NCBI GenBank assembly: GCA_030754595.1
Contig: JASLZZ010000023.1
Span: 1 to 12,314, forward strand
Length of the DNA stretch: 12,314 bases
Source: Nitrospinota bacterium
GTDB taxonomy: Bacteria; UBA8248
Reading direction: 5' to 3'
The notes under the pieces were generated by a model. It did not search any database. It was not told where the DNA came from and worked only from the letters and a program-made list of their open reading frames with translations. Numbering within the stretch: position 1 is the stretch's first letter; every line of letters begins with the position of its first letter. Positions 1 through 12,314 of this stretch are shown piece after piece. The position numbers and the translations under genes are program-made.

Positions 1-140
1 ATCGGGCCTCAGCACCTCTTTTTGGCTGCCACCATCTCCGAGCATCTGATATCCTCTCGCTCGGGCAATTTTAGCCAATTATATCATATGGTTACAAAGA
101 TTCCCGCCTCTTTTTGCTCTGTTCCGCCGCATAATGTGGG
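1..140 (-). mobile_element. Left end of an insertion sequence (probably IS1380 family), truncated by the window edge, including the transposase 5' fragment (45..1, MLGDGGSQKEVLRPD)
   Basis: Positions 2-140 are the reverse complement of 12176-12314 with one mismatch (cgggcAatt vs cgggcGatt). The inner end reads CCCACATTATGCGGCGGAAC, matching 13/20 with the ISEcp1 IRL as I recall it (CCTAGATTCTACGTCAGTAC). It is followed by TGaTATAAT, a GAGAGGA RBS and an ATG whose frame stays open to the edge. Confidence 0.7.
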
Positions 141-507: not shown

Positions 508-1275
508 ATGCCCACCCAGGAGGCAATCCGGTACGAGGTCCGGGATCATATCGCGTGGCTCACCCTGAACCGCCCCGAAAAGAAAAACGCCATCAACTAC
601 GCCATGCGAAAAGAGGTCCAGGAAGCCTATATCGACATCAAGCACAATACGGAGGTCTGGGCGGCGATCATCACCGCCGAGGGGGATGTCTTCTGCTCGG
701 GCAAGGATATTTTGGAAACCCCGCCGGAGGAGGACGGCTCGGTCATGTCGAACGATGAGCTCTACCTCTTCCTCCGTCATATTTATAAGCCGATCATCTG
801 TGCCATCAACGGCCCCTGTCTGGCCCAGGGGGGCGGTTTCGCACTGAACTCGGATATCGTGATCATGTCCGAGCGCGCCTCGATTGGTTGGCCCCAGGTC
901 AAGCGGGGAATTTCCACGGTCAGCGGCTCCATCATGTGCGCCCAGGACATCCCCTGGGCACAGGCGATGGGCTACCTGATGCGGGGGAAATTCATCCCGG
1001 CCGAGGAGTGTCTCCGCTTCGGAATCGCCAACGAGGTGGTCCCCCACGAAGACCTCCTCCCGGCGGCCGAGCGCTTTGCGAGGGAAATTCTCGAGTCCGC
1101 CCCGGTGGCCGTCCAGGCCGTTAAGGAGGCGGCGCGCCGCAGTCAGGATATTCCGTTTGAAAGCCGGATTTTCATCGCGCGCGACGTTGCCAACCGGGTG
1201 CTCCACACCGAGGATGCCAAGGAAGGAATCCTGGCCTTCAGGGAAAAACGCCCGCCCGTCTGGAAGGGGAAATGA
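508..1275 (+). CDS. Enoyl-CoA hydratase/isomerase (crotonase) superfamily protein with atypical active site
   Basis: Motifs LTLNRPEKKNA, FCSGKD, KPIICAING, EDAKEGILAFREKRPPVWKG. AAGGAGG RBS just upstream. Confidence 0.93.
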   Translation: MPTQEAIRYEVRDHIAWLTLNRPEKKNAINYAMRKEVQEAYIDIKHNTEVWAAIITAEGDVFCSGKDILETPPEEDGSVMSNDELYLFLRHIYKPIICAINGPCLAQGGGFALNSDIVIMSERASIGWPQVKRGISTVSGSIMCAQDIPWAQAMGYLMRGKFIPAEECLRFGIANEVVPHEDLLPAAERFAREILESAPVAVQAVKEAARRSQDIPFESRIFIARDVANRVLHTEDAKEGILAFREKRPPVWKGK

Positions 1276-2498
1276 GCGTCGAAGGAGAAATGAGCGCCGG
1301 GGCGCAGGCGCCCCTGGCCGGGGTCCGGGTGCTCGACCTCACCCAGGTCATCGCGGGCCCGTATTGTACGGCCATGCTTGCGGACATGGGGGCCGAGGTG
1401 GTCAAAATCGAGAGGCCGGGCACGGGAGACGATCTGCGCTCGGTCCACCGCTACGAGGGCCGCGAGGAACACGAGGATTATTTTTATGCGAACAATCGCT
1501 CTAAAAAAAGCGTCGCGGTGGACCTCAAAAAACCGGGCGGGCGCTCGGCGGCGCACGAACTTGCCCGCCGGGCGGATGTCCTCGTCGAGAATTTATCGCC
1601 CGGAACGGCCCATCGCCTCGGGATGGGGTGGGAGGATCTTTCGCCCCTGAACCCCCGGCTGGTTTACTGCTCGCTCTCGGGCTTCGGGCAGGACGGTCCC
1701 TACCGGGATCGCCCGGGCCTTGATCCGATCCTCCAGGCCGTTTCGGGGGTAATGAGCGTGACGGGTCTGCCGGGGGAGGAGCCCCGGATGATCGGATCCC
1801 CGCTGGCCGACGTGATGGCGGGCATGTTTTCCGCGTTCGCGGTCGTTTCGGCGCTTCAGGCCGCCAGCCGCGAGGGGCGAGGGCGGCGAATCGACGTGAG
1901 CCTCCAGGACGCGATGCTGGCCGGGCTCGGGCCCCGCATGGGGGAGACCCTTCAGGCGGGAATTTCGCCGGGCCGCTGGGGCAACGAAAATCCCATGCGC
2001 GTGCCGGCGAACACCTACCGGACGTCCGATGGGCGCTACCTGGCGATCATCGTCCAAAACGATCGGTTCTGGCCCCTTTTTTGCCGGGCGATGGATCGCG
2101 AGGATTTGATCGGCGAGGAGCGCTTCGCCACCATGGCGGGCCGCCTCGAACACCGCGAGGAGCTGGACGGGATAGTGGCCCGTGTTTTTTCGGAGCGGCC
2201 TTCAGCGGCCTGGACGCCGCGCCTCGAGGCCGAGCGCATACCTTTCGCGCTCGTGAACGATTTCGCCGAGGCGCTCGACGACCCCCAGGCGAGGCACCGG
2301 GGCATCGTCTGCGAACTAACGCACCCGGCGTCGGGTCCGATCCGGGTGGTTGGCCCTCCCTGGATCATGACGGGCGCCCAAGCGGAAATGACCCCGCCTC
2401 CACTGCTCGGCCAACACACCGAGGAAATCCTGCGCGAGTGGATCGGTTGGAATCAAGCGCAAATCCAAGCTTTTTTGGTTGATCATGCCCCGGAATAA
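1272..2498 (+). CDS. Class III CoA-transferase (CaiB/BaiF/Frc family); alternative start at 1290
   Basis: Motifs PLAGVRVLDL, IAGPY, MGAEVVKIE, NRSKKS, ADVLVEN, NPRLVYCSLSGFG, GPYRDRPGLD, and the catalytic Asp region GSPLADVMAG. ATGA overlap with the crotonase stop; a second ATG at 1290 has an AAGGAG RBS. Confidence 0.95.
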   Translation: MSVEGEMSAGAQAPLAGVRVLDLTQVIAGPYCTAMLADMGAEVVKIERPGTGDDLRSVHRYEGREEHEDYFYANNRSKKSVAVDLKKPGGRSAAHELARRADVLVENLSPGTAHRLGMGWEDLSPLNPRLVYCSLSGFGQDGPYRDRPGLDPILQAVSGVMSVTGLPGEEPRMIGSPLADVMAGMFSAFAVVSALQAASREGRGRRIDVSLQDAMLAGLGPRMGETLQAGISPGRWGNENPMRVPANTYRTSDGRYLAIIVQNDRFWPLFCRAMDREDLIGEERFATMAGRLEHREELDGIVARVFSERPSAAWTPRLEAERIPFALVNDFAEALDDPQARHRGIVCELTHPASGPIRVVGPPWIMTGAQAEMTPPPLLGQHTEEILREWIGWNQAQIQAFLVDHAPE

Positions 2499-2707
2499 GG
2501 CGAATTTCATCGTTGGCTGGATCGGAGGTTTCATGGGATAGAGATTTTGGCGGTATAGACATGGAGAAGCTCCTCCGCGAAGCCTGCTCTTCACTCGGGG
2601 GCTTCTCGCTCTTCACTCGAAGCCACCTCTCGCCCCGGCGGAGCCGCCCCGTGCGTATCCAGGCCCGCCGGATTTCATCTATACTTTGAAAAAGTCAATT
2701 TCCACCG

Positions 2708-3742
2708 GTGTTCACCCCGGCCTGGAGCCAATCCGTGAAACCACCCGTCGAAGTCGGCCTGATACTCGCGCTCACTACTCAAGGCCTAGCCGTCCGCTCC
2801 TACGAGCCCATGAGCGCCTTCGCGCGGGAAGCCGAGCGGCTGGGTTTTCACTCGGTATGGCTGTGCGATCACTTTTTCACCTTGCCCCCCGGCGGGCCGC
2901 GCCAGGAGCGAATCAGGCAGGCCATGGAGCGCCCCACGGAGCCGGAATCGTCCCCGACCGATCCTCTCCTCGAGGCGTGGACGACTCTTTCCGCCCTCGC
3001 CAGGGACACCTCGAGCCTCCGGCTGGGCGCGAGTGTGCTCGCCGTGGGCTACCGGAACCCGGCGCTCCTGGCCAAGATGACCGCCACGCTCGACGTTATC
3101 AGCGGCGGCCGCGTCGAGATGGGCATCGGGGCCGGCTGGGTAGAGGCGGAATACCGGGCCTACGGCTATGAATTTCCCAAGGCCTCCGTCCGGGTCGCCC
3201 AGATGGAAGAAGCGGTCCGGATCATGAAAATCATGTGGACCGAGCCCGAGCCCAACTTCGAGGGTGCGCACTTTCGGATCGAGCGGGCCTACTGCAACCC
3301 GCCGCCTCTCCAGAAGCCGCACCCGCCGATTTGGATCGGAGGCGAGGGCCCCAAGGTGCTCGGCGTCGCCGCGCGCCACGCGGACGGTTTCAACGCACGC
3401 TACTGGCCCCCCGAGCGCTTCGCCGAGCGCGCGGCTGAACTCGCCGCCGGCTGCCGCGCGGCCGGGCGCGACCCGGCGGAGCTCCGCTCATCGGTGATGG
3501 TCCTTGTCGTTCCCGAAAAAGATCCGGCCTGGGCCGATGCCGAACGGCGAAATTTCCCCTCCACCCCGGACTCGGGCATCATCGCGGGCGATCCGGCCAC
3601 CTGCATCGAGCGCCTCTGGGCGTATATCGACGCCGGGGTGCGACGGCTGCTGATCTCCATTCCGAATCTCGACAAGAACCCCGAGCGCCTCCGCCTTGCC
3701 GGCGAGGAAATTATTCCCGCCCTCATCGAGGCGGGCGGATAG
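2708..3742 (+). CDS. Luciferase-like monooxygenase (LLM) family oxidoreductase, resembling putative F420-dependent subfamilies; start uncertain (GTG 2708 or 2735)
   Basis: Motifs AERLGFHSVWLCDHF, LEAWTTLSALA, YRNPALLAKMTATLDVISGGRVEMGIGAGW, PPIWIGGEG, ARHADGFN. Confidence 0.9.
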   Translation: MFTPAWSQSVKPPVEVGLILALTTQGLAVRSYEPMSAFAREAERLGFHSVWLCDHFFTLPPGGPRQERIRQAMERPTEPESSPTDPLLEAWTTLSALARDTSSLRLGASVLAVGYRNPALLAKMTATLDVISGGRVEMGIGAGWVEAEYRAYGYEFPKASVRVAQMEEAVRIMKIMWTEPEPNFEGAHFRIERAYCNPPPLQKPHPPIWIGGEGPKVLGVAARHADGFNARYWPPERFAERAAELAAGCRAAGRDPAELRSSVMVLVVPEKDPAWADAERRNFPSTPDSGIIAGDPATCIERLWAYIDAGVRRLLISIPNLDKNPERLRLAGEEIIPALIEAGG

Positions 3743-3746
3743 CGCG

Positions 3747-3770
3747 GGGAGGGGATTCACTCTCCCTTTT
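3747..3770 (+). terminator. Possible weak intrinsic terminator
   Basis: GGGAGGG...CTCTCCC stem (one G-U pair) followed by TTTT directly after the LLM stop codon. Confidence 0.35.
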
Positions 3771-3812
3771 CAGGGCCGAGCCCTTTTGAGGCCGAGGCGC
3801 GAGGAGTAACCC

Positions 3813-4502
3813 ATGGAATTAGACGAATACCTGAAGTCCGGTAAATACGCGGACTCCGACTCGCCGCTGGTCGCGGAAAAAGCTCGCGAGCTCGCCGAGA
3901 GCTGCGAGAGCGACGCCGAGAAGGCCGTTCGCATCCACGCCTATGTCCGTGACCTGACCTTCGACATCGCCGGCGGTTTTCGGATGCTCCTCGACGGAAA
4001 AGGCAAGGCCTCTGATTTCATCCGCGAGGGCCGGGGATTTTGCATGCACAAGGCGGCCGCTTTCGCCGCTCTGTGCCGCGCCGCGGGCGTTCCGGCCCGC
4101 ATCGGTTTCGAGATCGTCGATTGCCCCGACAAGCCTTTCCTGCCCGAGAAGATGCGCAAGGTGTACGGAACGCGCCCCCAGCCCTGGCACTCGGTGGGCG
4201 AGGTCTACCTGAACGGCGGATGGGTCGTCGCCGATTGCACAGTGGACCGTGAGCAGGGAGAGCGGACGGGGAGGCCGGTGCCGGACTTCGATGGCGTGCA
4301 CGATCTTGCGACAACCGAAGGCCCGGTCCTCAATCGGCGCGGCAGTTCGCCGGACATGCCCGACGCCGTCGTCGAACGCCACAAGCGTGCCGCCGCCGCT
4401 TTTTTCAAGCACATGGCCTCGGACGAGCCGCCCGCCCTGCTGCCCGACAACATCATCGTGGGCGAGACGGAGGATGTGGCGCTCACCCCGCCGGAAAAGT
4501 AG
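3813..4502 (+). CDS. Transglutaminase-like (cysteine protease fold) protein
   Basis: Cys-His-Asp triad context GFCMHKAAAFAALCRAAGVPAR ... WHSVGEVYLNGGWVVAD. GAGGAG RBS upstream. Confidence 0.88.
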   Translation: MELDEYLKSGKYADSDSPLVAEKARELAESCESDAEKAVRIHAYVRDLTFDIAGGFRMLLDGKGKASDFIREGRGFCMHKAAAFAALCRAAGVPARIGFEIVDCPDKPFLPEKMRKVYGTRPQPWHSVGEVYLNGGWVVADCTVDREQGERTGRPVPDFDGVHDLATTEGPVLNRRGSSPDMPDAVVERHKRAAAAFFKHMASDEPPALLPDNIIVGETEDVALTPPEK

Positions 4503-4749
4503 GTCCGCTTAATCCCCGAATTTCCCACCCTCGCATCGTAACCTTGGATGAGGTGCCCGGGAGGTCTCTTTCAGCCTCCCTGCGGGAGGCGCCGCCTTCG
4601 GGAGGCGTACCCCTCGGTAGGCGCAGACCGGGGAAGCGCAGCCCGAAAAAGGGCGAATAGGCCTAAAACTGAAAAAGGGGGGGTGTCGCCGCATAACTCC
4701 GGTTTAAAGCTAATTCGTGTTGATAGGGGCACGAGAAAAGAGTAATTTA

Positions 4750-4765
4750 TGGCCTAAGTATCGCA
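4750..4765 (+). promoter_or_regulatory. Possible sigma-54 (-24/-12) promoter upstream of the SsuD-like gene
   Basis: TGGCCTAAGTATCGCA has exact GG-N10-GC spacing after an AT-rich stretch, but only a partial match to TGGCACG-N4-TTGC. Confidence 0.25.
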
Positions 4766-4908
4766 ATGTGAGTGGTTGTGTCATTGGTGACCGGGGACAT
4801 CAGGGATTTGAATGGTAATTAGTCCGTGGGTCACCGTGGATATTCAGGCGTTTCGCCGGGGGGGTAACCGTGTTCCTCCAAAGGCCGGCGCCAATAGGGG
4901 GGAGAGTG

Positions 4909-5997
4909 ATGTCCATCGAATTGGTCTGGTATCTATCATGCGACGGAGACGCCGCCCACATCGGCCAAAAATTCGCCGACGATCCGCCGAGCTTCGAGAC
5001 GTTCAGCCGCATCGCTCAAAACGCCGAGCGAAGCGGATTTTCCACCATCCTGTCTCCCTCGCACCAATTGAGCGTTAATTACGGACGGCAGGCCCCGGCC
5101 TGGGACGCCCTCGTCAACACGACGGCGGTCGCCACGGCGACAAAAACGCTCAAACTCATCATGGCTGTCCGTCCGGGATTGATCGAGCCCGCCATATGCG
5201 CGCGCATGCTCACTTCGCTCGACCACCTGAGCGGGGGGCGGCTTCTGGCGAACATCATCACGGGCGGCTCCCCCCTCTCGATGTACGGTGAGGAAATGGA
5301 CCACGATGCGCGCTATCGCCGGATGGAGGAGTATCTCCAGGTCTTTGAAGGGCTCTGGACCCAGGAAAAATTCTCCTTCGAGGGAGAATTTTACACCCTC
5401 AAGGACGCAACCCTGTACCCCAAGCCGCTTCATAATTCGCATATTCCGATTTTAATCGCCGGTTCATCCGAGATTGCGCGCGAGATCAGCGTCCGGCGGG
5501 CCGACTATTACGTGTTCTGGGGCGAGAACCCCGATCAGTGCTCCGAGCGGGTCCAGGAGATGGAGGCCCGGTTGAGCGGCACGGGCCGGAGACTCGGATA
5601 TGTGACCCGGTTTCACATCGTCGCCCGCGAGACGGAGGAGGAAGCCTTCGAGGCGGCTCATGAGCTCGTCTCCCAGGTCGATCCCGAGTTGATGACCCTG
5701 CGGGAAGAGTCGGCCTCCAAGACCGAGAGCGTCGGGACGCTGGACCAGAAGGCGCGGGCTAACACCGCGGTGATGGAGCCGAACCTGTGGACCGGAGTCG
5801 GCAAGGCGCGCTCGGGCACGGGGGTTTCCATCGTCGGCTCCTACGAGCAGTGCGCACAAAAGATCGTCGAGTTCGAGCAGGCGGGGATCAATCTTCTGAT
5901 CATGTCCGGGTTCCCGCTTCATTCCGAGTGCGAGCGGGTCGGTCAAAACGTCATTCCGCTGGTCCGCAAGATGGAAGAAGAGCTCGGCCTCAGCTGA
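4909..5997 (+). CDS. FMNH2-dependent alkanesulfonate monooxygenase-like protein (SsuD/MsuD family of LLMs)
   Basis: Motifs SCDGD, AERSGF, LKLIMAVRPG, LDHLSGGRLLANI, HDARY, FWGE, RFHIVARETEEEA, PNLWTGVGKARSGTG, IMSGFP. ATG at 4909 after a GGGGGAGAG RBS preferred over GTG 4870. Confidence 0.88.
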   Translation: MSIELVWYLSCDGDAAHIGQKFADDPPSFETFSRIAQNAERSGFSTILSPSHQLSVNYGRQAPAWDALVNTTAVATATKTLKLIMAVRPGLIEPAICARMLTSLDHLSGGRLLANIITGGSPLSMYGEEMDHDARYRRMEEYLQVFEGLWTQEKFSFEGEFYTLKDATLYPKPLHNSHIPILIAGSSEIAREISVRRADYYVFWGENPDQCSERVQEMEARLSGTGRRLGYVTRFHIVARETEEEAFEAAHELVSQVDPELMTLREESASKTESVGTLDQKARANTAVMEPNLWTGVGKARSGTGVSIVGSYEQCAQKIVEFEQAGINLLIMSGFPLHSECERVGQNVIPLVRKMEEELGLS

Positions 5998-6180: not shown

Positions 6181-7512
6181 ATGGAAAATATCGCTTTAGA
6201 GGACAAACATTTCAGACTCCCGGCTTCCGAGCTCGTGGGGATGGTGAATGACGCGCGCGAGCGCACCTTGGAACTGGTCGCCGATCTGTATGACGATAAT
6301 TATACCGTGCCTCTTCAGGAAAATGTGAATCCGTTCCTCTGGGAACTTGGGCATACCGCGTTTTTCTATGACGTCTTCCTCACGCGGGTTCTTGATCACA
6401 AGGAACCCGTCATGGAGGGAGGAGACGACCTGTATAATTCGTTCACGGTGGATCACGACGATCGCTGGTCATTGCCCTTGCCCTCGAAAAAGGTAACGCT
6501 GAGTTACATGCAACAAATTTACGATATGGCCATCGATCGTTTGGGTTCGCATGAGCCCAGCGCGGAGGAGACGTATTTTTATCTCAACGCGGTGCATCAC
6601 GAGGATATGCACGGGGAGGCTTTTACGTACATGAGACAAACCCTGGGATATCCCGGACCGCGGCTCAGCGCCACTCATCCGGACCCGGCCTCCGTCGAAA
6701 CGGGGCCATGCCCCGGCGACGCGGAAATACCCGGGGGCACGTTTCAACTCGGGGCCACGCCGGACCTCCCCTTTGTGTTTGACAACGAGAAATGGGCGCA
6801 CCCCGTGGAGGTCTCGTCCTTCAAAATAGCCCGCGCTACGGTGACGAATGCGGAATTTGCCGGGTTCGTCGAGGACGGCGGATATCATCGGCGGGAGTTT
6901 TGGAGCCAGCAGGGTTGGATATGGCGCACCAAGGGAGGTTTTTTGCATCCCATCTACTGGCGGCGCGGCGAGAAGGGGTGGCTGCGGCGGAATTATGAAA
7001 AAATGATTCCCATCGAGGAAAACGCCCCGGTGATTCATGTGAGTTGGTATGAAGCCGAAGCCTATTGCAACTGGGCCGGAAGGCGGCTTCCCTCCGAGGC
7101 GGAGTGGGAAATGGCCGCCGGCGCTGGGCCCGCCGATGGCGGCGGAATCTCCGAGCGTAAGCGGAGATACCCCTGGGGAGACGAACCTCCGGCCTCTGAT
7201 CGGGCCAACCTGGATTCACGTCTCCTCGGGTGCGCCGACGTCGGAGCCTTCCCCCTTGGGGACAGCGCCTTCGGATGCCGCCAGATGATAGGAAATGTTT
7301 GGGAGTGGACCGCCTCTCCGTTCTATCCCTTTCCCGGCTATATCGTGGACTTTCCCTACAAGGAGTATTCGGCCCCCTGGTTTGGATACCGGAAGGTGCT
7401 GAAGGGGGGGGCTTGGGCCACGCGCTCCCGCCTGGGGAACAATAAGTACCGCAATTTTTTCCCGCCCCATAGGAACGATGTATTCGCCGGGTTTCGCACC
7501 TGCGCAACCTAG
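6181..7512 (+). CDS. SenA-like non-heme iron sulfoxide/selenoxide synthase (EgtB/SenA family; DinB_2 + FGE-sulfatase domains)
   Basis: ARERTLEL; VNPFLWELGH and HEDMHGE (three-His iron ligands); LYNSFTVDHDDRWSLPLP; FDNE; PVIHVSWYEAEAYC; RRLPSEAEWE; GNVWEWT; PYKEYSAPWFG; YRNFFPPHRNDVFAGFRTC. These resemble the SenA clade more than mycobacterial EgtB, as I recall them. AAGGAGG RBS. Confidence 0.85.
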   Translation: MENIALEDKHFRLPASELVGMVNDARERTLELVADLYDDNYTVPLQENVNPFLWELGHTAFFYDVFLTRVLDHKEPVMEGGDDLYNSFTVDHDDRWSLPLPSKKVTLSYMQQIYDMAIDRLGSHEPSAEETYFYLNAVHHEDMHGEAFTYMRQTLGYPGPRLSATHPDPASVETGPCPGDAEIPGGTFQLGATPDLPFVFDNEKWAHPVEVSSFKIARATVTNAEFAGFVEDGGYHRREFWSQQGWIWRTKGGFLHPIYWRRGEKGWLRRNYEKMIPIEENAPVIHVSWYEAEAYCNWAGRRLPSEAEWEMAAGAGPADGGGISERKRRYPWGDEPPASDRANLDSRLLGCADVGAFPLGDSAFGCRQMIGNVWEWTASPFYPFPGYIVDFPYKEYSAPWFGYRKVLKGGAWATRSRLGNNKYRNFFPPHRNDVFAGFRTCAT

Positions 7513-7532: not shown

Positions 7533-7656
7533 GCTCGGCCTCGGCTGACGGGAGTGGTTGCCGAGAGCGGTTAGCCGCCGGGAGCGGTCTGAGAACTCGG
7601 CGCGGAAAAGAGAAACGGCTAGCGGCCGGGACGCAACCGCGAGACCGGGGCCGCCC
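7533..7656 (+). repeat. Degenerate direct repeat, copy 2 (between the senA-like and MFS genes)
   Basis: GCTCGGCCTCGGCTGACGGGAGTGGTTGCCGAGAGCGGTTAG, CGGCGCGGAAAAGAGAAACGGCTAGCG and GGGACGCAACCGCGAGACCGGGGCCGCCC each match blocks in 5982-6100. Confidence 0.85.
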
Positions 7657-7725
7657 TGCTTGACCCGCTCCTCTCGGGGATTTTTTAGCGGAAATTCACT
7701 CGGGCTTGCCCGCGGGAGGACGATC

Positions 7726-8949
7726 ATGGAGAGGGGCTCTCAACGCGGGCTCGCGATTGCCGCGATATATCTGACCGGGCTCGGACAGGGCGCGTGTTTC
7801 GTCACCTTTCCCGCACTGGGAAATATTTTCAAGAACCCCGAATTCCATCATTTCTCAAACGCCGATTTCGGTTCCCTGTTCGCGCCGATGATCGTCCTGG
7901 CCATACTGACCTCGATTTTCGCCGGCCCGGCGGCGAGGCGATGGGGGCTCAAGCCGGTATTGCTGACCGGGCTCATTTCCTATGTGTTTTCGATGGGGGC
8001 CCTGGCCTCGACCCAGATTATTCTCGGGGTGCATGCCATCACCTACTGGGTGACGATTCTGGCCATATCCGGTGTCGGGGTCGGAATCGGAGCCACCCTG
8101 ACCGCGCTGAACGCTTACGCGGCGGGCCTGTTCAGCGAAAAATCCGAAGCCGCCCTCTCCGGCCTCTACGGCATCATGGGCCTGGGGATGGCGCTTGCGC
8201 CGCTGATGATCGGAATATTTATCGAGTCGGGGACATGGTGGGGCGCGCCCGCCACGCTCGGAGGTATTTTCTTTATCCTCTCGCTGGGGATTTTTGCGCT
8301 TCCGCTGTGGGCGCCTCCGCCTCCGCCGGATTCCGAGACGGGTGGGGTGGCCGCCCTGATCCGGGGCCTGCCGGTGCGGGTCTGGGGATTCGCGGGCTTT
8401 ATTTTCCTCTACGGCATTTGCGAGACCGTTTTCGCCAACTGGGCGGTGATCTATCTCCACGAGGAAAAAGGGCTCACCGCCCAATGGGCCGGCTTGGCGC
8501 TGTCTTTTTACTGGGCCATGATAACGGTGGGCCGGTTTCTGGCGGCGGGCGTATCTTATTGGTTCCCGGTGCGCTGGCTTCTGGCCGCCATGCCCGCGAT
8601 GATTCTAGCGGCGTTTCTTATCCTCCCCGCCGTGGAAGGACCCCTCGCCAGCATCGCGGCGTTCGGCCTGGCGGGTCTGGGCTGCTCGGCCTGCCTGCCC
8701 ATCGCGGTCAGCTTCGCCGAGGGGGAATGTCCGGGAACCTCGGGGCTCGTCTCGGGCTGCATGATCTCGTCCGTCATGCTCGGCATCGGCGCCGGCTCCT
8801 GGGGGGTCGGGTGGATACAGGGGGCGGGCGGGTTTTCATTCTCCGCGATATACATGGGGTCGGGCGTCTTCGCCGTGGGAATGGTTATCCTCGCCTATCT
8901 GCTCGCGCGGGCGCCTTACGCCGCCGTGCCCGAGACCGCCGGGGCCTGA
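7726..8949 (+). CDS. Major facilitator superfamily transporter (FucP/TsgA-like)
   Basis: About 12 hydrophobic segments in two halves, with GPAARRWGLK, FLYGICE...NWAVIYL and FYWAMITVGRF. ATG at 7726 follows a GGGAGGA RBS; the ORF-track extension to 7558 runs through the repeat and is unlikely. Confidence 0.88.
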   Translation: MERGSQRGLAIAAIYLTGLGQGACFVTFPALGNIFKNPEFHHFSNADFGSLFAPMIVLAILTSIFAGPAARRWGLKPVLLTGLISYVFSMGALASTQIILGVHAITYWVTILAISGVGVGIGATLTALNAYAAGLFSEKSEAALSGLYGIMGLGMALAPLMIGIFIESGTWWGAPATLGGIFFILSLGIFALPLWAPPPPPDSETGGVAALIRGLPVRVWGFAGFIFLYGICETVFANWAVIYLHEEKGLTAQWAGLALSFYWAMITVGRFLAAGVSYWFPVRWLLAAMPAMILAAFLILPAVEGPLASIAAFGLAGLGCSACLPIAVSFAEGECPGTSGLVSGCMISSVMLGIGAGSWGVGWIQGAGGFSFSAIYMGSGVFAVGMVILAYLLARAPYAAVPETAGA

Positions 8950-9228: not shown

Positions 9229-9531
9229 CTAACTCATCTTATGCAAAATTGAATGCGTATGTTTCAAACTGCCATCTTCTTGCCTATTAAAGATATATGT
9301 TAAATGTTTGCCTGACAAAGCGGCAATAGTGTTAAAGGTTGCATAAACCTCTCCTTTCTGTACGTTATGCTCGGTTCCATCTTTAGGAATATATTCCTTC
9401 GTAGACGATGGTCCTACAATGTGTATGGCAGGACCTTCGGTAACCGAACAAAGATTATCCATACTTGAACCCTCAATTGCACTCAAAACTTCTTGCTCTA
9501 AAGCACTGGGAACTTGTTTTTCTTGATTCAT
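9229..9531 (-). CDS. Hypothetical protein (100 aa) in an AT-rich patch
   Basis: ATG start preceded by an AGGGGAG RBS. A 100-codon open frame in visibly AT-rich DNA is less likely by chance. No recognisable motif. Confidence 0.6.
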   Translation of the reverse strand: MNQEKQVPSALEQEVLSAIEGSSMDNLCSVTEGPAIHIVGPSSTKEYIPKDGTEHNVQKGEVYATFNTIAALSGKHLTYIFNRQEDGSLKHTHSILHKMS

Positions 9532-9673: not shown

Positions 9674-10345
9674 TCACGATTTTCGCCACCCGGCCCATCC
9701 CGAAACGAAGGAGTACATATAGGTGGCAAGGAAGGCCGCTGTAACCACCGACGAGGCGATGGGCACTAACCATGCGGCCACCAAAGCGACATTCACAAGA
9801 CCAATCGCAGCGGCTGATTTGACCCGCTTTCTGATGAGAGCGGGCATCGGAAACGGCGCCAGCATCGATACGGAATTCATCAAGAATACCGCAACTAAAA
9901 TGTACTCATGGTCGAAGTTAAACTGCTCGGCCAATAGAAGGGTGAACAGCATGTGGCGCATCAGTTCGTTCGTCGGAGAGCCAGTTCCCTCGGTTGCCTT
10001 TGGATCGAGCCGTGTTGCAACGCGGAGAATGATCGCGCCGGCGGCTATTGCGCTTGCGGCGATGAGGAGGCTCCCGAAGTGCGCTCCGACCACCAGAGCT
10101 AGGATAACATGGGTGACTGCGTCACAAACGTTATCGAGGTTGGCGCCGAACCGGCTTCTGATGTTCAACTTGGCGGCCAATACGCCGTCAAGATCGTCCA
10201 TGATATTGTTGAAAATGATCAATGGGACTACGTACAGATAGCCGTCGTTCAGAAAGAGAACAACAAAGGGAAGTACTCCGAGAATGGACGTTACACTGGC
10301 CAAATTCCGATAGATGAAATTTCCCAGCGCACCGCGTATGTTCAA
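9674..10345 (-). CDS. CDP-alcohol phosphotransferase family membrane protein
   Basis: Signature DDLDGVLAAKLNIRSRFGANLDNVCD (DxxDGxxA[R]...GxxxDxxxD) and several TM helices. The TTG start overlaps the methyltransferase stop (TTGA). Confidence 0.9.
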   Translation of the reverse strand: MNIRGALGNFIYRNLASVTSILGVLPFVVLFLNDGYLYVVPLIIFNNIMDDLDGVLAAKLNIRSRFGANLDNVCDAVTHVILALVVGAHFGSLLIAASAIAAGAIILRVATRLDPKATEGTGSPTNELMRHMLFTLLLAEQFNFDHEYILVAVFLMNSVSMLAPFPMPALIRKRVKSAAAIGLVNVALVAAWLVPIASSVVTAAFLATYMYSFVSGWAGWRKS

Positions 10346-11154
10346 GACACTTCGGCCTCAAGAACGAAGAAATGATTTTCCAGCTTCGGAAAGGAAATAC
10401 CCAGCGCTTTGGGTATGTGGGTGATCCAGGGGTTGCAAAGGCGCAACCCGAAATACGTCAAATGGCCGACGCTCCAGAGGACATGAAATCTTTCGGGCAC
10501 CATTTCCTTCCACATTCTGACCAGTTCGCACCCCATCTGCATGAGCACATAGGGTTCGTTCCTCTCGACGTGTAGGGCACTCAAGCCACACTTTCCGAAA
10601 ATGCGCCCGTAATCCGGCACGGAACGATAGACGACCTGGTAGTCGCCCTGGCGCGTCACGGTGTCTCCCCTGACGGTAGACTCGCGGCAGAGGATCATGC
10701 CACCCGGTTCAATGCACGGCGCCAGTTTTCGCAGCAAGGCAATCACGTCGCCTTCATTGAGGTACATGAGCATACCACCGAGGAATACCAGGTCGTAGCG
10801 GCCATCGGGCTCGAACGTCATGACATCACCATGGATGGGACTGAGGTTAGGGAATGGAGAGCATCTCTTTTGCAGGGACTCGAAAAGGGTGCGGCTGCCC
10901 TCCACTGCCGTCACCCGGGAGAAACGGCGCGCGAAGTCTTCCGCCCAGAACCCGATGCCGCTGCCGAGGTCGAGGACCGCGCCGTCCCGCTTCACGTCAC
11001 CGGCCAGCCGTCGAACGATCAGGGATTCCGCCTGAAAGCGGAAATCCCCCGCGCTCGCGGGAAAGCCAAACCCGTCCATCATGTACGGTCCGAGGATCGA
11101 AGGCGTCGCTTCTTCCCAATACCGTTTGACCGATGCGTAGTCGAGCTCAGTCAT
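10342..11154 (-). CDS. Class I SAM-dependent methyltransferase, phosphoethanolamine N-methyltransferase-like
   Basis: Motif I VLDLGSGIG, VTAVE, GDV, YDLVF, LMYL, PGGMILCRES. The start overlaps the upstream gene's end by 8 nt. Confidence 0.88.
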   Translation of the reverse strand: MTELDYASVKRYWEEATPSILGPYMMDGFGFPASAGDFRFQAESLIVRRLAGDVKRDGAVLDLGSGIGFWAEDFARRFSRVTAVEGSRTLFESLQKRCSPFPNLSPIHGDVMTFEPDGRYDLVFLGGMLMYLNEGDVIALLRKLAPCIEPGGMILCRESTVRGDTVTRQGDYQVVYRSVPDYGRIFGKCGLSALHVERNEPYVLMQMGCELVRMWKEMVPERFHVLWSVGHLTYFGLRLCNPWITHIPKALGISFPKLENHFFVLEAEVS

Positions 11155-11974
11155 TAGAGGCGGCTAACGGCAACGAGTCTATCGCGGAAGTTAGAAGGTG
11201 GTGGACATCCGGCCCGACGTGGGCTTGAGACGGCTCGCTGAACATCCTATCCGCTTCGTTGAGGTCGACTATGGTGTCGATTTCATACCAGTGGTCCGGG
11301 TCGAAGAAGACCGTCTCTAAGGAAAGCATGCCGTCGGCAACCATATCGGCGAAAACGGATTCATAATATTCATTGACCCGGCCTTCCGAGATGTACTGGG
11401 CCAGCCTTTTTTTGGCCATATCCCAGGTCGGCGGGGAAAGGCTGTAGACATTTACCGTCTTGTAACGTGGCATGTTGTTCTCGACGCCCTCGACGCCGCC
11501 GACTTGGAAAGCGGTGACCCGCTGTCTCGGTCCCACCGTCACCGTGGTTCCGTTCATCCAGGAGCGGTTGTGGGAAACGGCGATTCTGTCCGGTTGGAGC
11601 ATCTCCGTCAGCATCGAGGCATCGAAGACAAGGTCACTCTCCACCAGCAGAAACGGCTCCTGGATCTGTTCACGGGCCAGCCACAGGGAATAGATGTTGT
11701 TGGTTGTCCTGTAATGAGGGTTGTAGATGTAGTCGACCTGCATGCCGCTTGCCCTGCTGTCGAGAAAATCGCAGATACGGGCGCCCATGTGACCGATAAC
11801 CACAACCAACCGCTCAATTCCTTGATCACGTAGATTGCGGACTAGGCGTTCGAGGATTGGGAGTCCACCAACCTCGGTGAAGCACTTCGGGGCATCCATG
11901 GTCAATGGACGCAAACGGCTTCCCGTTCCCGCAACGAGCAGGAGCGCCGTGGTTACATGGGCATGGATGGTCAT
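11147..11974 (-). CDS. Phosphocholine cytidylyltransferase-like nucleotidyltransferase (LicC/PntC-like NTP_transferase)
   Basis: Motifs LLVAGTGSRLRPLT..PKC, YNPHYRTTNNIYSLWLA, LVESDLVF, NEYYE, WYEIDT. ATG at 11974 with a GAGGAGG RBS preferred over 12001. Confidence 0.9.
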   Translation of the reverse strand: MTIHAHVTTALLLVAGTGSRLRPLTMDAPKCFTEVGGLPILERLVRNLRDQGIERLVVVIGHMGARICDFLDSRASGMQVDYIYNPHYRTTNNIYSLWLAREQIQEPFLLVESDLVFDASMLTEMLQPDRIAVSHNRSWMNGTTVTVGPRQRVTAFQVGGVEGVENNMPRYKTVNVYSLSPPTWDMAKKRLAQYISEGRVNEYYESVFADMVADGMLSLETVFFDPDHWYEIDTIVDLNEADRMFSEPSQAHVGPDVHHLLTSAIDSLPLAASND

Positions 11975-12049
11975 GAACGAATCCCTCCTCTGGGGCTCCA
12001 TTTGGTATTTTGTGCCGACATTTCCTATTCAATTTATTCGGAACGAACC

Positions 12050-12078
12050 ATTATACATCCCATTGATGTATCCCGCAA
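12050..12078 (-). promoter_or_regulatory. Sigma-70-type promoter of the cytidylyltransferase operon with an overlapping palindromic operator
   Basis: The minus strand reads TTGCGG-N17-TATAAT. A perfect ATACATC-N5-GATGTAT inverted repeat (12053-12071) covers the spacer and part of the -10. Confidence 0.65.
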
Positions 12079-12175
12079 AGACGAGCCCCACCTGGATTGA
12101 ATATCTTGATAAGCTCACTTGGTGGGACCCGGTCGCGGCAAAATCCCCGTCGAACTCTCTGAAAAGTTGAGTGAA

Positions 12176-12314
12176 CCCACATTATGCGGCGGAACAGAGC
12201 AAAAAGAGGCGGGAATCTTTGTAACCATATGATATAATTGGCTAAAATCGCCCGAGCGAGAGGATATCAGATGCTCGGAGATGGTGGCAGCCAAAAAGAG
12301 GTGCTGAGGCCCGA
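12176..12314 (+). mobile_element. Second copy of the IS left end (probably IS1380 family), truncated by the window edge; transposase start at 12271
   Basis: Inverted copy of 2-140. Extended -10 TGaTATAAT at 12230-12238 (alternatively TTGTAA-N18-TAAAAT), RBS GAGAGGA, and ATG at 12271 open to the edge. Confidence 0.7.

Follow-up and report, generated by a model that had tools for sequence, protein, structure and literature searches.

The 12,314-base window analyzed here is an entire contig (C23) of a 3.55-Mb Nitrospinota genome bin of 138 contigs, 96.9% complete and 6.4% contaminated. On its minus strand lie three overlapping genes, and we propose, with a probability of roughly 0.55, that they form a self-contained "mini-Kennedy" module, horizontally mobile, that builds a head group of N-methylated 2-aminoethyl phosphate. 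The first encodes a cytidylyltransferase of the LicC/PntC clade (NT; 11147..11974, 275 aa from an ATG at 11974), the second an S-adenosylmethionine (SAM)-dependent primary-amine N-methyltransferase (MT; 10342..11154, 270 aa) and the third a small CDP-alcohol phosphotransferase (CPT; 9674..10345, 223 aa from a TTG start). At its full extent the NT open reading frame (ORF) runs from an in-frame upstream ATG at 12001 to 11147 (284 aa), but the start at 11974 is likelier because a GGAGG lies 9 nt before that ATG. NT and MT overlap by exactly 8 nt (ATGACTGA) and MT and CPT by exactly 4 nt (TTGA, holding the TTG start), just as a preliminary description of this DNA had read from the letters alone. 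When checked with hidden Markov models, all three proteins passed the curated Pfam cut-offs (PF12804 and PF00483 for NT, PF13649 and relatives for MT, PF01066 for CPT). The one clear promoter that the same description had seen did not hold up: a consensus scan of the minus strand gave nothing sigma-70-like upstream of NT, and by eye only a possible -10 box could be pointed out, a perfect TATAAT at 12055..12050 accompanied by a weak -35 (TTGCGG, 3/6) at 12078..12073. No terminator-like site after CPT was returned by the consensus scan.

The trio is conserved well beyond this genome, a point on which the preliminary description had made its reading depend. Homologues of MT numbered 958 at E ≤ 1e-5, the best 120 being 64-99% identical, and a scan of species-representative genomes yielded 110 confirmed stretches, of which 80 loci were kept. 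These carry the labels of about ten phyla in all (Nitrospinota, Alpha- and Gammaproteobacteria, Deltaproteobacteria, SAR324, Nitrospirota, Planctomycetota, Acidobacteriota, Verrucomicrobiota, Spirochaetaceae, Sumerlaeia and Acidimicrobiales), and many come from deep-sea or vent samples. MT is followed immediately by CPT in 72 of the 72 loci with at least 750 nt of room and preceded immediately by a window-type NT in 66 of the 71 with at least 800 nt. The 8-nt NT/MT overlap was found again in 25 of the 42 loci in which MT aligns from residue 1, and identities to the window proteins co-vary among the three (r 0.77-0.85, n = 67). The five NT exceptions are all alphaproteobacterial: two (L008 and L009) have a divergent NT, 21% identical and with a DAD motif in place of ESD, and three (L007, L010 and L011) have no NT adjoining the MT-CPT pair. 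Clustering of all flanking ORFs across the 80 loci revealed no fourth conserved gene, and Pfam annotation of 60 neighbours gave unrelated functions. Several scattered neighbours were judged not to be general: MFS transporters (four loci), MIPS (L045), a class-V aminotransferase (L062), a TauD-family gene beside the L010 pair, and the integrases that adjoin the cassette in L007 and L028. The TauD-family dioxygenase of L010, a Paracoccaceae metagenome-assembled genome (MAG), is encoded at L010:4340-5347 (-), divergent to the NT-less MT-CPT pair; the TauD Pfam family includes enzymes that hydroxylate trimethylammonium compounds.

The distribution of the cassette does not follow phylum. MT was present in only 2 of 51 genomes of the window's phylum, its own and one of the same genus (89% identity); L064, which bears the same phylum label, is 59% identical and the alphaproteobacterial L007 79%. 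Phyla are also intermixed, with starred support, among the trio NTs of a quick tree, which was used for this point only and contains five fused sequences and two long-branch junk rows. Because of this sparse presence, the identities that cross phyla and the intermixed tree, these comparisons indicate that the cassette has been transferred horizontally as a unit, repeatedly. Near-identical copies of the window cassette occur in seawater and marine metagenomes: 16 DNA runs from nine such studies contain 78% or more of the words sampled from the stretch.

NT matches PF12804 at 41.8 bits and PF00483 at 39.5 bits. When a family profile (A1, 59 sequences) was compared with solved structures, the best match was LicC of S. 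pneumoniae (1jyk; 8.8e-17 with the sequence alone and 3.5e-28 with the profile), full length over profile positions 14-254, followed by the PntC domain of Treponema Tde1415 (6pd1; 1.7e-14 and 3.2e-25, also full length). The sugar-phosphate enzyme mannose-1-P guanylyltransferase was matched at 7.6e-16, and IPCT at 3e-14 over its N-terminal nucleotide-binding part only (2xme and 4mnd; positions 14-135). The NCBIfam IPCT/DIPPS model NF041135 aligns with residues 18-255 of NT at 67.3 bits, against a cut-off of 580. Whether the enzyme might prefer sugar or inositol phosphates had been a concern from the outset; judged by these sequence comparisons it is of the LicC/PntC type and not of the sugar- or inositol-phosphate type. 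Near the N terminus the GxGxRL nucleotide loop reads AGTGSRLRPLT, and two glutamates stand out in the NT alignment, the nearly invariant E121 in an ESD motif and the invariant E214 in a YYE motif, which align with E104 and E196 of PntC. In section 8 of PMC6697681, Glu104 and Glu196 of PntC hydrogen-bond the primary amine of 2-aminoethylphosphonate (AEP), and the smaller Asp105 and Asp192 of LicC give room for the trimethylammonium group of phosphocholine. The small LicC-type aspartates are not present in NT, where the aligned residues are E121 and E214, and the Glu/Glu pair therefore suggests a pocket of the primary-amine type, not the choline type.

Longer relatives of NT provided a second indication of its substrate class. 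Among them were proteins of ~644 aa in which an NT part 50-59% identical to the window NT is fused to a PF00155 domain, a fusion that one source labels "threonine-phosphate decarboxylase", as well as NT-PF01066 fusions of about 500 aa. Among NCBIfam models the PF00155 domain scored highest with CobD (TIGR01140), at 168-184 bits and thus under the cut-off of 290.55, with HisC lower. We examined 79 loci with such NT-decarboxylase fusions (L104-L182). Their NT domains are 47-63% identical to the window NT, apart from those of three Dehalococcoidia-labelled loci (35-36%); the trio NTs of other phyla span a similar range. E121, D123, Y213 and E214 persist in 118-119 of the 120 fused homologues listed. 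Directly downstream on the same strand, 70 of the 79 loci encode a CDP-alcohol transferase of ~215 aa whose best NCBIfam match is archaetidylserine synthase. These sister modules are thus like the trio in an NT domain with the same pocket residues, in the downstream CPT and, in six loci, in a full-length MT homologue that is 33-36% identical and shares the motifs FLGGxxMYL, RESTV, YQxVYRSVxxY and NHFF with the window MT; in L107 and L152 it lies on the same strand, after CPT. They differ from it in carrying a feeder of their own, the decarboxylase, in having a canonical DGxxAR CPT (with a 12-residue spacer in 68 of 70 loci), and in mostly lacking MT. CobD-type enzymes convert O-phospho-amino acids to amino-alcohol phosphates by decarboxylation, and decarboxylation with pyridoxal phosphate requires a primary amine; in the four-function cassettes methylation would therefore follow decarboxylation. 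Since NT homologues are fused to a CobD-like decarboxylase, the NT orthogroup would act on amino-alcohol phosphates such as phosphoethanolamine, and the fusions point to NT substrates of the phosphoethanolamine type rather than to sugar or inositol phosphates. The sister module would itself make head groups by a Kennedy-like pathway with a phospho-amino acid as its starting point. Its carriers belong to Desulfobacterota, Bacteroidota, Coriobacteriia, Methanosarcinaceae and further groups (examples are L107:484-3941 and L105:5001-6935), including the cultured strains at L119, L158, L163 and L175.

MT is a class-I SAM methyltransferase (PF13649, 52.7 bits) that also exceeds the cut-off of PF05891, the NTM1/NRMT family (41.3 bits against 27, residues 6-199). 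With a family profile (A2, 63 sequences) run against the PDB, the closest relatives were the MT1 domains of the plant phosphoethanolamine methyltransferases (PEAMT), AtPMT2 (5wp5) at 1.4e-25 and AtPMT1 (5wp4) at 9.4e-25; nematode PMTs gave 6.4e-17 (6wlf) and 3.5e-12 (4krg), the next family, KsgA, 4.7e-12, NTM1 1.7e-9 and the Plasmodium PMTs about 1e-7. The PEAMT-like character that the preliminary description had assigned to MT was thus borne out by sequence. Motif I (LDLGSGxG) is invariant in the MT alignment, and in the alignments with PEAMT, FLGGLLMYL stands against FSNWLLMYL, CREST against FRESC and YRSVxxY against YREPRFY. The fold gave a different ranking. For the AF2 model of MT (pLDDT 90.9), the alpha-N-methyltransferases ScNTM1 and NRMT1/2 had VIA Z values of 23.2-24.4 (ScNTM1 24.4; rmsd 1.9-2.3 Å over 203-216 aligned residues), versus 22.1 for AtPMT1, 21.5 for HcPMT1, 20.0 for AtPMT2 and 20 for DhpI, and Foldseek E-values do not tell these fold families apart. 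A search of the ESM Atlas returned "methyltransferase" clusters only. The robust statement from sequence and model together is that MT appears to be a primary-amine N-methyltransferase; phosphoethanolamine is the best-supported predicted substrate, and the company of a cytidylyltransferase and a CDP-alcohol transferase would argue for a small-molecule amine over a protein N-terminus. MT is a single 270-aa domain without the PEAMT di-domain architecture, and no longer fused forms were found at E ≤ 1e-20 in a search that is weak evidence on this point. PMC8353235 describes MT1 domains as carrying out only the first methylation, from phosphoethanolamine to phospho-monomethylethanolamine, and soybean as passing phospho-monomethylethanolamine through the nucleotide pathway to phosphatidyl-monomethylethanolamine.

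CPT matches PF01066 at 40.4 bits (cut-off 22), and its alignment (A3, 66 sequences) defines the motif D50xxD53G54xxA57[A58]x8G67xxxD71xxxD75, in which every position is invariant except that of the canonical Arg, here Ala. Invariant residues across the 66 sequences are D50, D51, D53, G54, A57, G67, D71, N72, D75, H79, R108, R112, G122, T125, N126, E127, R130 and H131, and K59, next to the canonical-Arg position, is nearly so. In the 72 of 77 trio CPTs that are readable at this position the residue is never Arg, the pair at the AR position being AA in 44, AV in 9, AK in 6, AT in 5, AG in 3, AI in 3 and AN in 2. The AF2 model (pLDDT 90.6) is a helical membrane protein with ten helices. Its best fold match, over the whole length, is phosphatidylserine synthase (PSS) of M. 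jannaschii (7pow/7b1k; TM 0.67-0.78, E about 1e-4), whereas DIPPS, PgsA, PIPS and AF2299 gave TM 0.41-0.52 (DIPPS and AF2299 0.42-0.46) and the eukaryotic CHPT1 and CEPT1 0.26-0.28; among NCBIfam models archaetidylserine synthase was matched at E 0.0013, under its cut-off. PSS joins an amino-alcohol to a diacylglycerol phosphate, its donor being CDP-diacylglycerol and its acceptor serine. As set out in PMC8633023, the motif Arg49 compensates the phosphates of CDP-diacylglycerol, serine is held by Asp62, Ser63, Asp66 and Phe105, Arg101 and Arg104 matter for activity (which is lost in R101E), and the reaction is reversible. CPT shares with PSS the metal-binding Asp motif and a conserved Arg pair in the following helix, and differs in that Arg49 is replaced by Ala and Ser63 by Asn.

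To ask where a phosphobase might come from, we turned to the host genomes. The window holds no kinase and no PEP (phosphoenolpyruvate) mutase by family searches, as had been noted before, and the 96.9%-complete genome around it has no PF01633 choline/ethanolamine kinase (LicA-type) match and neither a PEP mutase over cut-off (the best match, to TIGR02320, reaches 131.9 bits against 319.55) nor an AEP transaminase over cut-off; its PhnD-like matches are all weak. Searches of the genome for licA, pepM and pcs, which the preliminary description had regarded as informative, thus gave nothing over cut-off for the first two and no Pcs candidate: besides CPT the CDP-alcohol transferases are a PssA and two PgsA-like genes, with no fourth that could be Pcs. 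As for PmtA, PF04191 matches exist in the genome, but this family also matches 6 of 14 control genomes. Because PssA adjoins Psd, the host should make phosphatidylethanolamine (PE). A MIPS gene is present, as is one stand-alone CobD-like gene (282 bits, just under cut-off). Genome-level counts were taken for 50 of the 80 loci, those on longer contigs: PEP mutase is over cut-off in 12, a choline/ethanolamine kinase is found in 4, CobD is over cut-off in 9 (11 at E ≤ 1e-65) and MIPS occurs in 26. By tally 28 of the 50, among them the chromosome-titled L057 and L070, lack PEP mutase, kinase and CobD alike; bin incompleteness applies to the remaining genomes without a feeder. Some hosts do have a phosphonate connection. 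Each of the genomes of the NT-less L007, L010 and L011 encodes a PEP mutase-NT fusion elsewhere, a Ppd-like gene lies beside the trio in L017, whose genome has a sub-threshold PEP-mutase-like match (273.8 bits), and about 3.5 kb separate the L012/L092 trio from a cluster that encodes PEP mutase-NT, Ppd, a class-V aminotransferase and a CDP-alcohol transferase. That cluster, on an alphaproteobacterial chromosome (L092:9900-15671 with L012:1-7569), also includes a PhyH dioxygenase, its CDP-alcohol transferase has 199 aa, and its gene content would fit phosphonolipid synthesis. AEP is thus a plausible alternative substrate in some hosts, not a general one.

The analysis shows the gene structure, the family assignments, the conservation and transfer of the cassette as a unit and the fusions that bear on substrate class. 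On this basis we infer a model that says which substrate is used, in what order the steps run, how many methyl groups are added, what the acceptor is and where the phosphobase originates. The LicC/PntC-type NT would join CTP with a small primary-amine phospho-alcohol, most likely phosphoethanolamine. The PEAMT-MT1/NTM1-like MT would N-methylate the amine with SAM, either while the phosphobase is still free, which is the plant and nematode way, or once it is CDP-linked or lipid-linked. The PSS-like CPT would then move the phospho-base from CMP to a membrane alcohol, most likely diacylglycerol. The product is most likely an N-methylated PE-type lipid, namely phosphatidyl-N-methylethanolamine, possibly carried on to the dimethyl form or to phosphatidylcholine (PC). 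The primary-amine pocket of NT and the MT1-like character of MT favour a single methylation at the soluble stage, and given the Glu/Glu pocket full methylation to choline, if any, would come only after activation. In phosphonate-making hosts the head group may be the 2-aminoethyl-phosphonate analogue. The core of the preliminary description, a trio that methylates, activates and transfers a phosphobase, is supported by these comparisons, and its hedges between a phospho- and a phosphono-base and between a lipid and a solute still stand.

Several observations weigh against this model. By fold, MT is modelled to be at least as close to NTM1/NRMT as to PEAMT MT1. The Glu/Glu pocket argues against phosphocholine as a substrate of NT. 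CPT lacks the canonical Arg of the DGxxAR motif throughout the readable trio loci, has little fold similarity to the eukaryotic phosphotransferases CHPT1 and CEPT1, and has as its closest solved relative an enzyme that uses CDP-diacylglycerol, not a soluble CDP-alcohol. The cassette holds no feeder enzyme and none is general among the 50 host genomes, more than half of which lack all three that were tallied. On the favourable side, fragments of each of the three genes turn up, with 0-3 differences, in contigs from four RNA libraries of separate studies, and one contig of 203 nt (10224-10426, no differences) bridges the MT/CPT junction, but such contigs show neither strand nor level and could reflect carried-over DNA.

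The alternatives differ mainly in the head group and in where it goes. A phosphonate version, in which NT makes CMP-AEP that is N-methylated and put on a lipid to give an N-methylated phosphonolipid, with the AEP coming from PEP mutase or scavenged from seawater, would agree with the PntC-like Glu/Glu pocket, with PEP mutase in 12 of 50 host genomes, with the marine habitat and with the phosphonate genes near the trio in L012/L092 and in L017 (there a Ppd-like neighbour and the 273.8-bit match); there is precedent in Streptomyces, where SAM-derived 2-(trimethylamino)ethylphosphonate is a known pathway intermediate (PMC9296572). That all three NT-less loci have a PEP mutase-NT fusion elsewhere is suggestive too, but they are all alphaproteobacterial and so not independent. 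The other 38 host genomes are without PEP mutase, the window's genome is without PEP mutase or AEP transaminase over cut-off and has only weak PhnD-like matches, and the CobD-like decarboxylase of the sister modules yields phosphate esters, not phosphonates, so that we regard the phosphonate version as unlikely in general. A soluble product is more doubtful still. Following the logic of DIPPS, the CDP-activated (methyl)aminoethyl phosphate would be placed on a small alcohol such as glycerol-3-phosphate, giving glycerophospho-N-methylethanolamine or a glycerophosphocholine-type osmolyte or piezolyte. Small CDP-alcohol transferases of six or more helices such as DIPPS do use soluble substrates, the NT orthogroup includes NT-CPT fusions like IPCT/DIPPS, and the labels of many hosts name deep-sea, vent or trench MAGs; against this, the CPT model resembles PSS (TM 0.67-0.78) far more than DIPPS or AF2299 (0.42-0.46), and no phosphatase is conserved beside the trio.

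Two further schemes, an amino-acid head group and a reversed donor, we consider improbable. MT could methylate the alpha-amine of O-phosphoserine, after which NT and CPT would build phosphatidyl-N-methylserine for decarboxylation by Psd, or else CPT could act like PSS or Pcs with CDP-diacylglycerol as the donor and NT would have another role. Phosphoserine is universal and would account for the missing feeder gene, the MT fold is closest to the alpha-N-methyltransferases of the NTM1 type, and the fold of CPT and its archaetidylserine-synthase match (E 0.0013, under cut-off) suit a serine-type pocket. Yet a decarboxylase is fused to NTs whose pocket residues are identical, so that these take the decarboxylated amine, the serine-contacting Ser63 of PSS is an invariant Asn in CPT, and a scheme dependent on CDP-diacylglycerol leaves unexplained why NT is kept in 66 of 71 loci. 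Least probable of all is an inositol route of the IPCT/DIPPS kind or like the alternative phosphatidylinositol pathway proposed for Bacteroidetes, in which NT would make CDP-inositol, MT would O-methylate, and CPT would make an inositol phospholipid or di-inositol phosphate. The IPCT/DIPPS model does align with residues 18-255 of NT (67 bits), MIPS is present in the window's genome and in one locus, L045, comes straight after the trio, and a route to phosphatidylinositol through a LicC-like NT and a CDP-alcohol transferase is proposed for Bacteroidetes, unconfirmed, in PMC9246714. That score is far under the cut-off of 580, however, IPCT is matched only over the N-terminal nucleotide-binding part (3e-14 versus 3.5e-28 for LicC), MIPS occurs in 26 of 50 hosts and is missing from the chromosome-titled L012 and L020, and the relatives of MT are N-methyltransferases. 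Finally, because no general feeder exists (28 of 50 genomes lack all three) and because PSS is described as reversible in PMC8633023, the trio could conceivably run as a head-group editing cycle that remodels existing membrane PE, although we think this improbable as well. A reversible CPT would turn PE and CMP into CDP-ethanolamine and diacylglycerol, NT running backwards with pyrophosphate would free phosphoethanolamine, the irreversible SAM-dependent methylation would drive the cycle forward, and CPT and NT would put the methylated base back, for a net conversion of PE and SAM to N-methyl-PE (through to PC). If true, this would be a portable three-gene alternative to PmtA for any PE-containing bacterium.

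Our preferred reading, a module that activates, methylates and transfers a phosphobase, makes the trio most likely a bacterial variant of the plant-like phosphobase-methylation Kennedy route, not yet described in bacteria. The plant and nematode branch uses the same three chemical steps, catalyzed by PEAMT MT1, a cytidylyltransferase and an aminoalcohol phosphotransferase; in soybean, for example, the sequence runs from phosphoethanolamine to phospho-monomethylethanolamine, CDP-monomethylethanolamine and phosphatidyl-monomethylethanolamine. MT1 is the domain closest to MT by sequence, and the RES and YRxxxxY segments align. The differences are as clear: the plant and nematode PEAMT is a di-domain protein and MT a single domain of 270 aa, the 223-aa PSS-like CPT is unlike CHPT1/CEPT1 (TM 0.26-0.28), the trio is without a kinase, and it is one overlapping bacterial operon. 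NT, in addition, is of the LicC/PntC type, which we take to be a different family from the eukaryotic CCT/ECT enzymes. The enzymes of the trio are from bacterial lineages (LicC/PntC, PEAMT-MT1/NTM1-like and PSS-like). LicC, the best solved relative of NT over its full length, likewise activates to a CDP-aminoalcohol, with an Asp/Asp pocket where the trio NT has Glu/Glu. The Lic-1 system employs the kinase LicA, which has no counterpart in the window's genome and a match in 4 of 50 hosts, and its partner is LicD (not searched for here), in place of CPT and MT; the LicCA-Cpt system of Treponema belongs to the same comparison. PntC (Tde1415, Ari1348) resembles NT over the full length (3.2e-25) and has its Glu104 and Glu196 equivalents conserved there, but it is partnered by an AEP transaminase or a PEP mutase fusion instead of a methyltransferase, and neither the window's genome nor 38 of 50 hosts has, over cut-off, the PEP mutase of its phosphonyl-tailoring clusters.

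In the textbook account, bacteria reach methylated PE and PC by PmtA lipid methylation, through Pcs, by CDP-choline salvage and by acylation of glycerophosphocholine. If the reading is true, bacteria would have an additional route in the methylation of a soluble phosphobase, hitherto seen in plants, nematodes and Plasmodium, and would carry it on a compact cassette that has moved among at least ten phyla. Full-text literature searches, which covered main texts, found no publication on the trio or on the decarboxylase-fused modules. Monomethyl- and dimethyl-PE lipids are reported in marine lipid surveys, and the cassette, if confirmed, would be a genetic marker for them and would suggest that the eukaryotic PEAMT MT1 domain may have a relative among prokaryotes; with the sister modules it would define bacterial and archaeal Kennedy-like head-group pathways from phospho-amino acids. 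The cultured carriers of the sister module (L119, L158, L163 and L175) make the question directly testable.

The upstream side of the cassette is bounded by repeated DNA. The unique stretch upstream of the trio stops at 12175, where a repeat of ~140 nt begins (12176..12314) and runs to the contig end; because it is multi-copy, the cassette abuts repeated DNA. An inverted copy lies at 2..140 of the same contig, the genome has 20 matches, many of them located at contig ends, and contigs from four RNA libraries that match the repeat diverge at 12174-12176 into different sequence contexts. The repeat probably represents one end of a multi-copy insertion element at which the assembly breaks. GC content is 0.52-0.60 in the trio region versus 0.57-0.70 in 500-base windows between 1001 and 9000. 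No Rfam family reached its gathering score, the sole match in 11950-12314 being a chance miRNA (E 0.41), and no tRNA was found when looked for.

Just downstream of the trio, in a stretch of 43% GC, lies a 100-aa ORF without a family match (9229-9531, -), which is partly conserved in the same-phylum locus L006 (62% over 48 aa) and covered by an identical RNA-library contig. Farther along on the plus strand, an ORF at 6181-7512 exceeds the NCBIfam cut-off for the selenoneine synthase SenA (489 bits against 420) and stays under that for EgtB (322 against 360); no senB- or senC-like gene occurs within the window. It is followed by an MFS transporter (7558-8949, +). The remainder of the window, 508-5997 (+) with a GC content of 0.57-0.70, encodes an enoyl-CoA hydratase, a family III CoA-transferase, an F420-type LLM oxidoreductase, a transglutaminase-like protein and an SsuD-like LLM monooxygenase.

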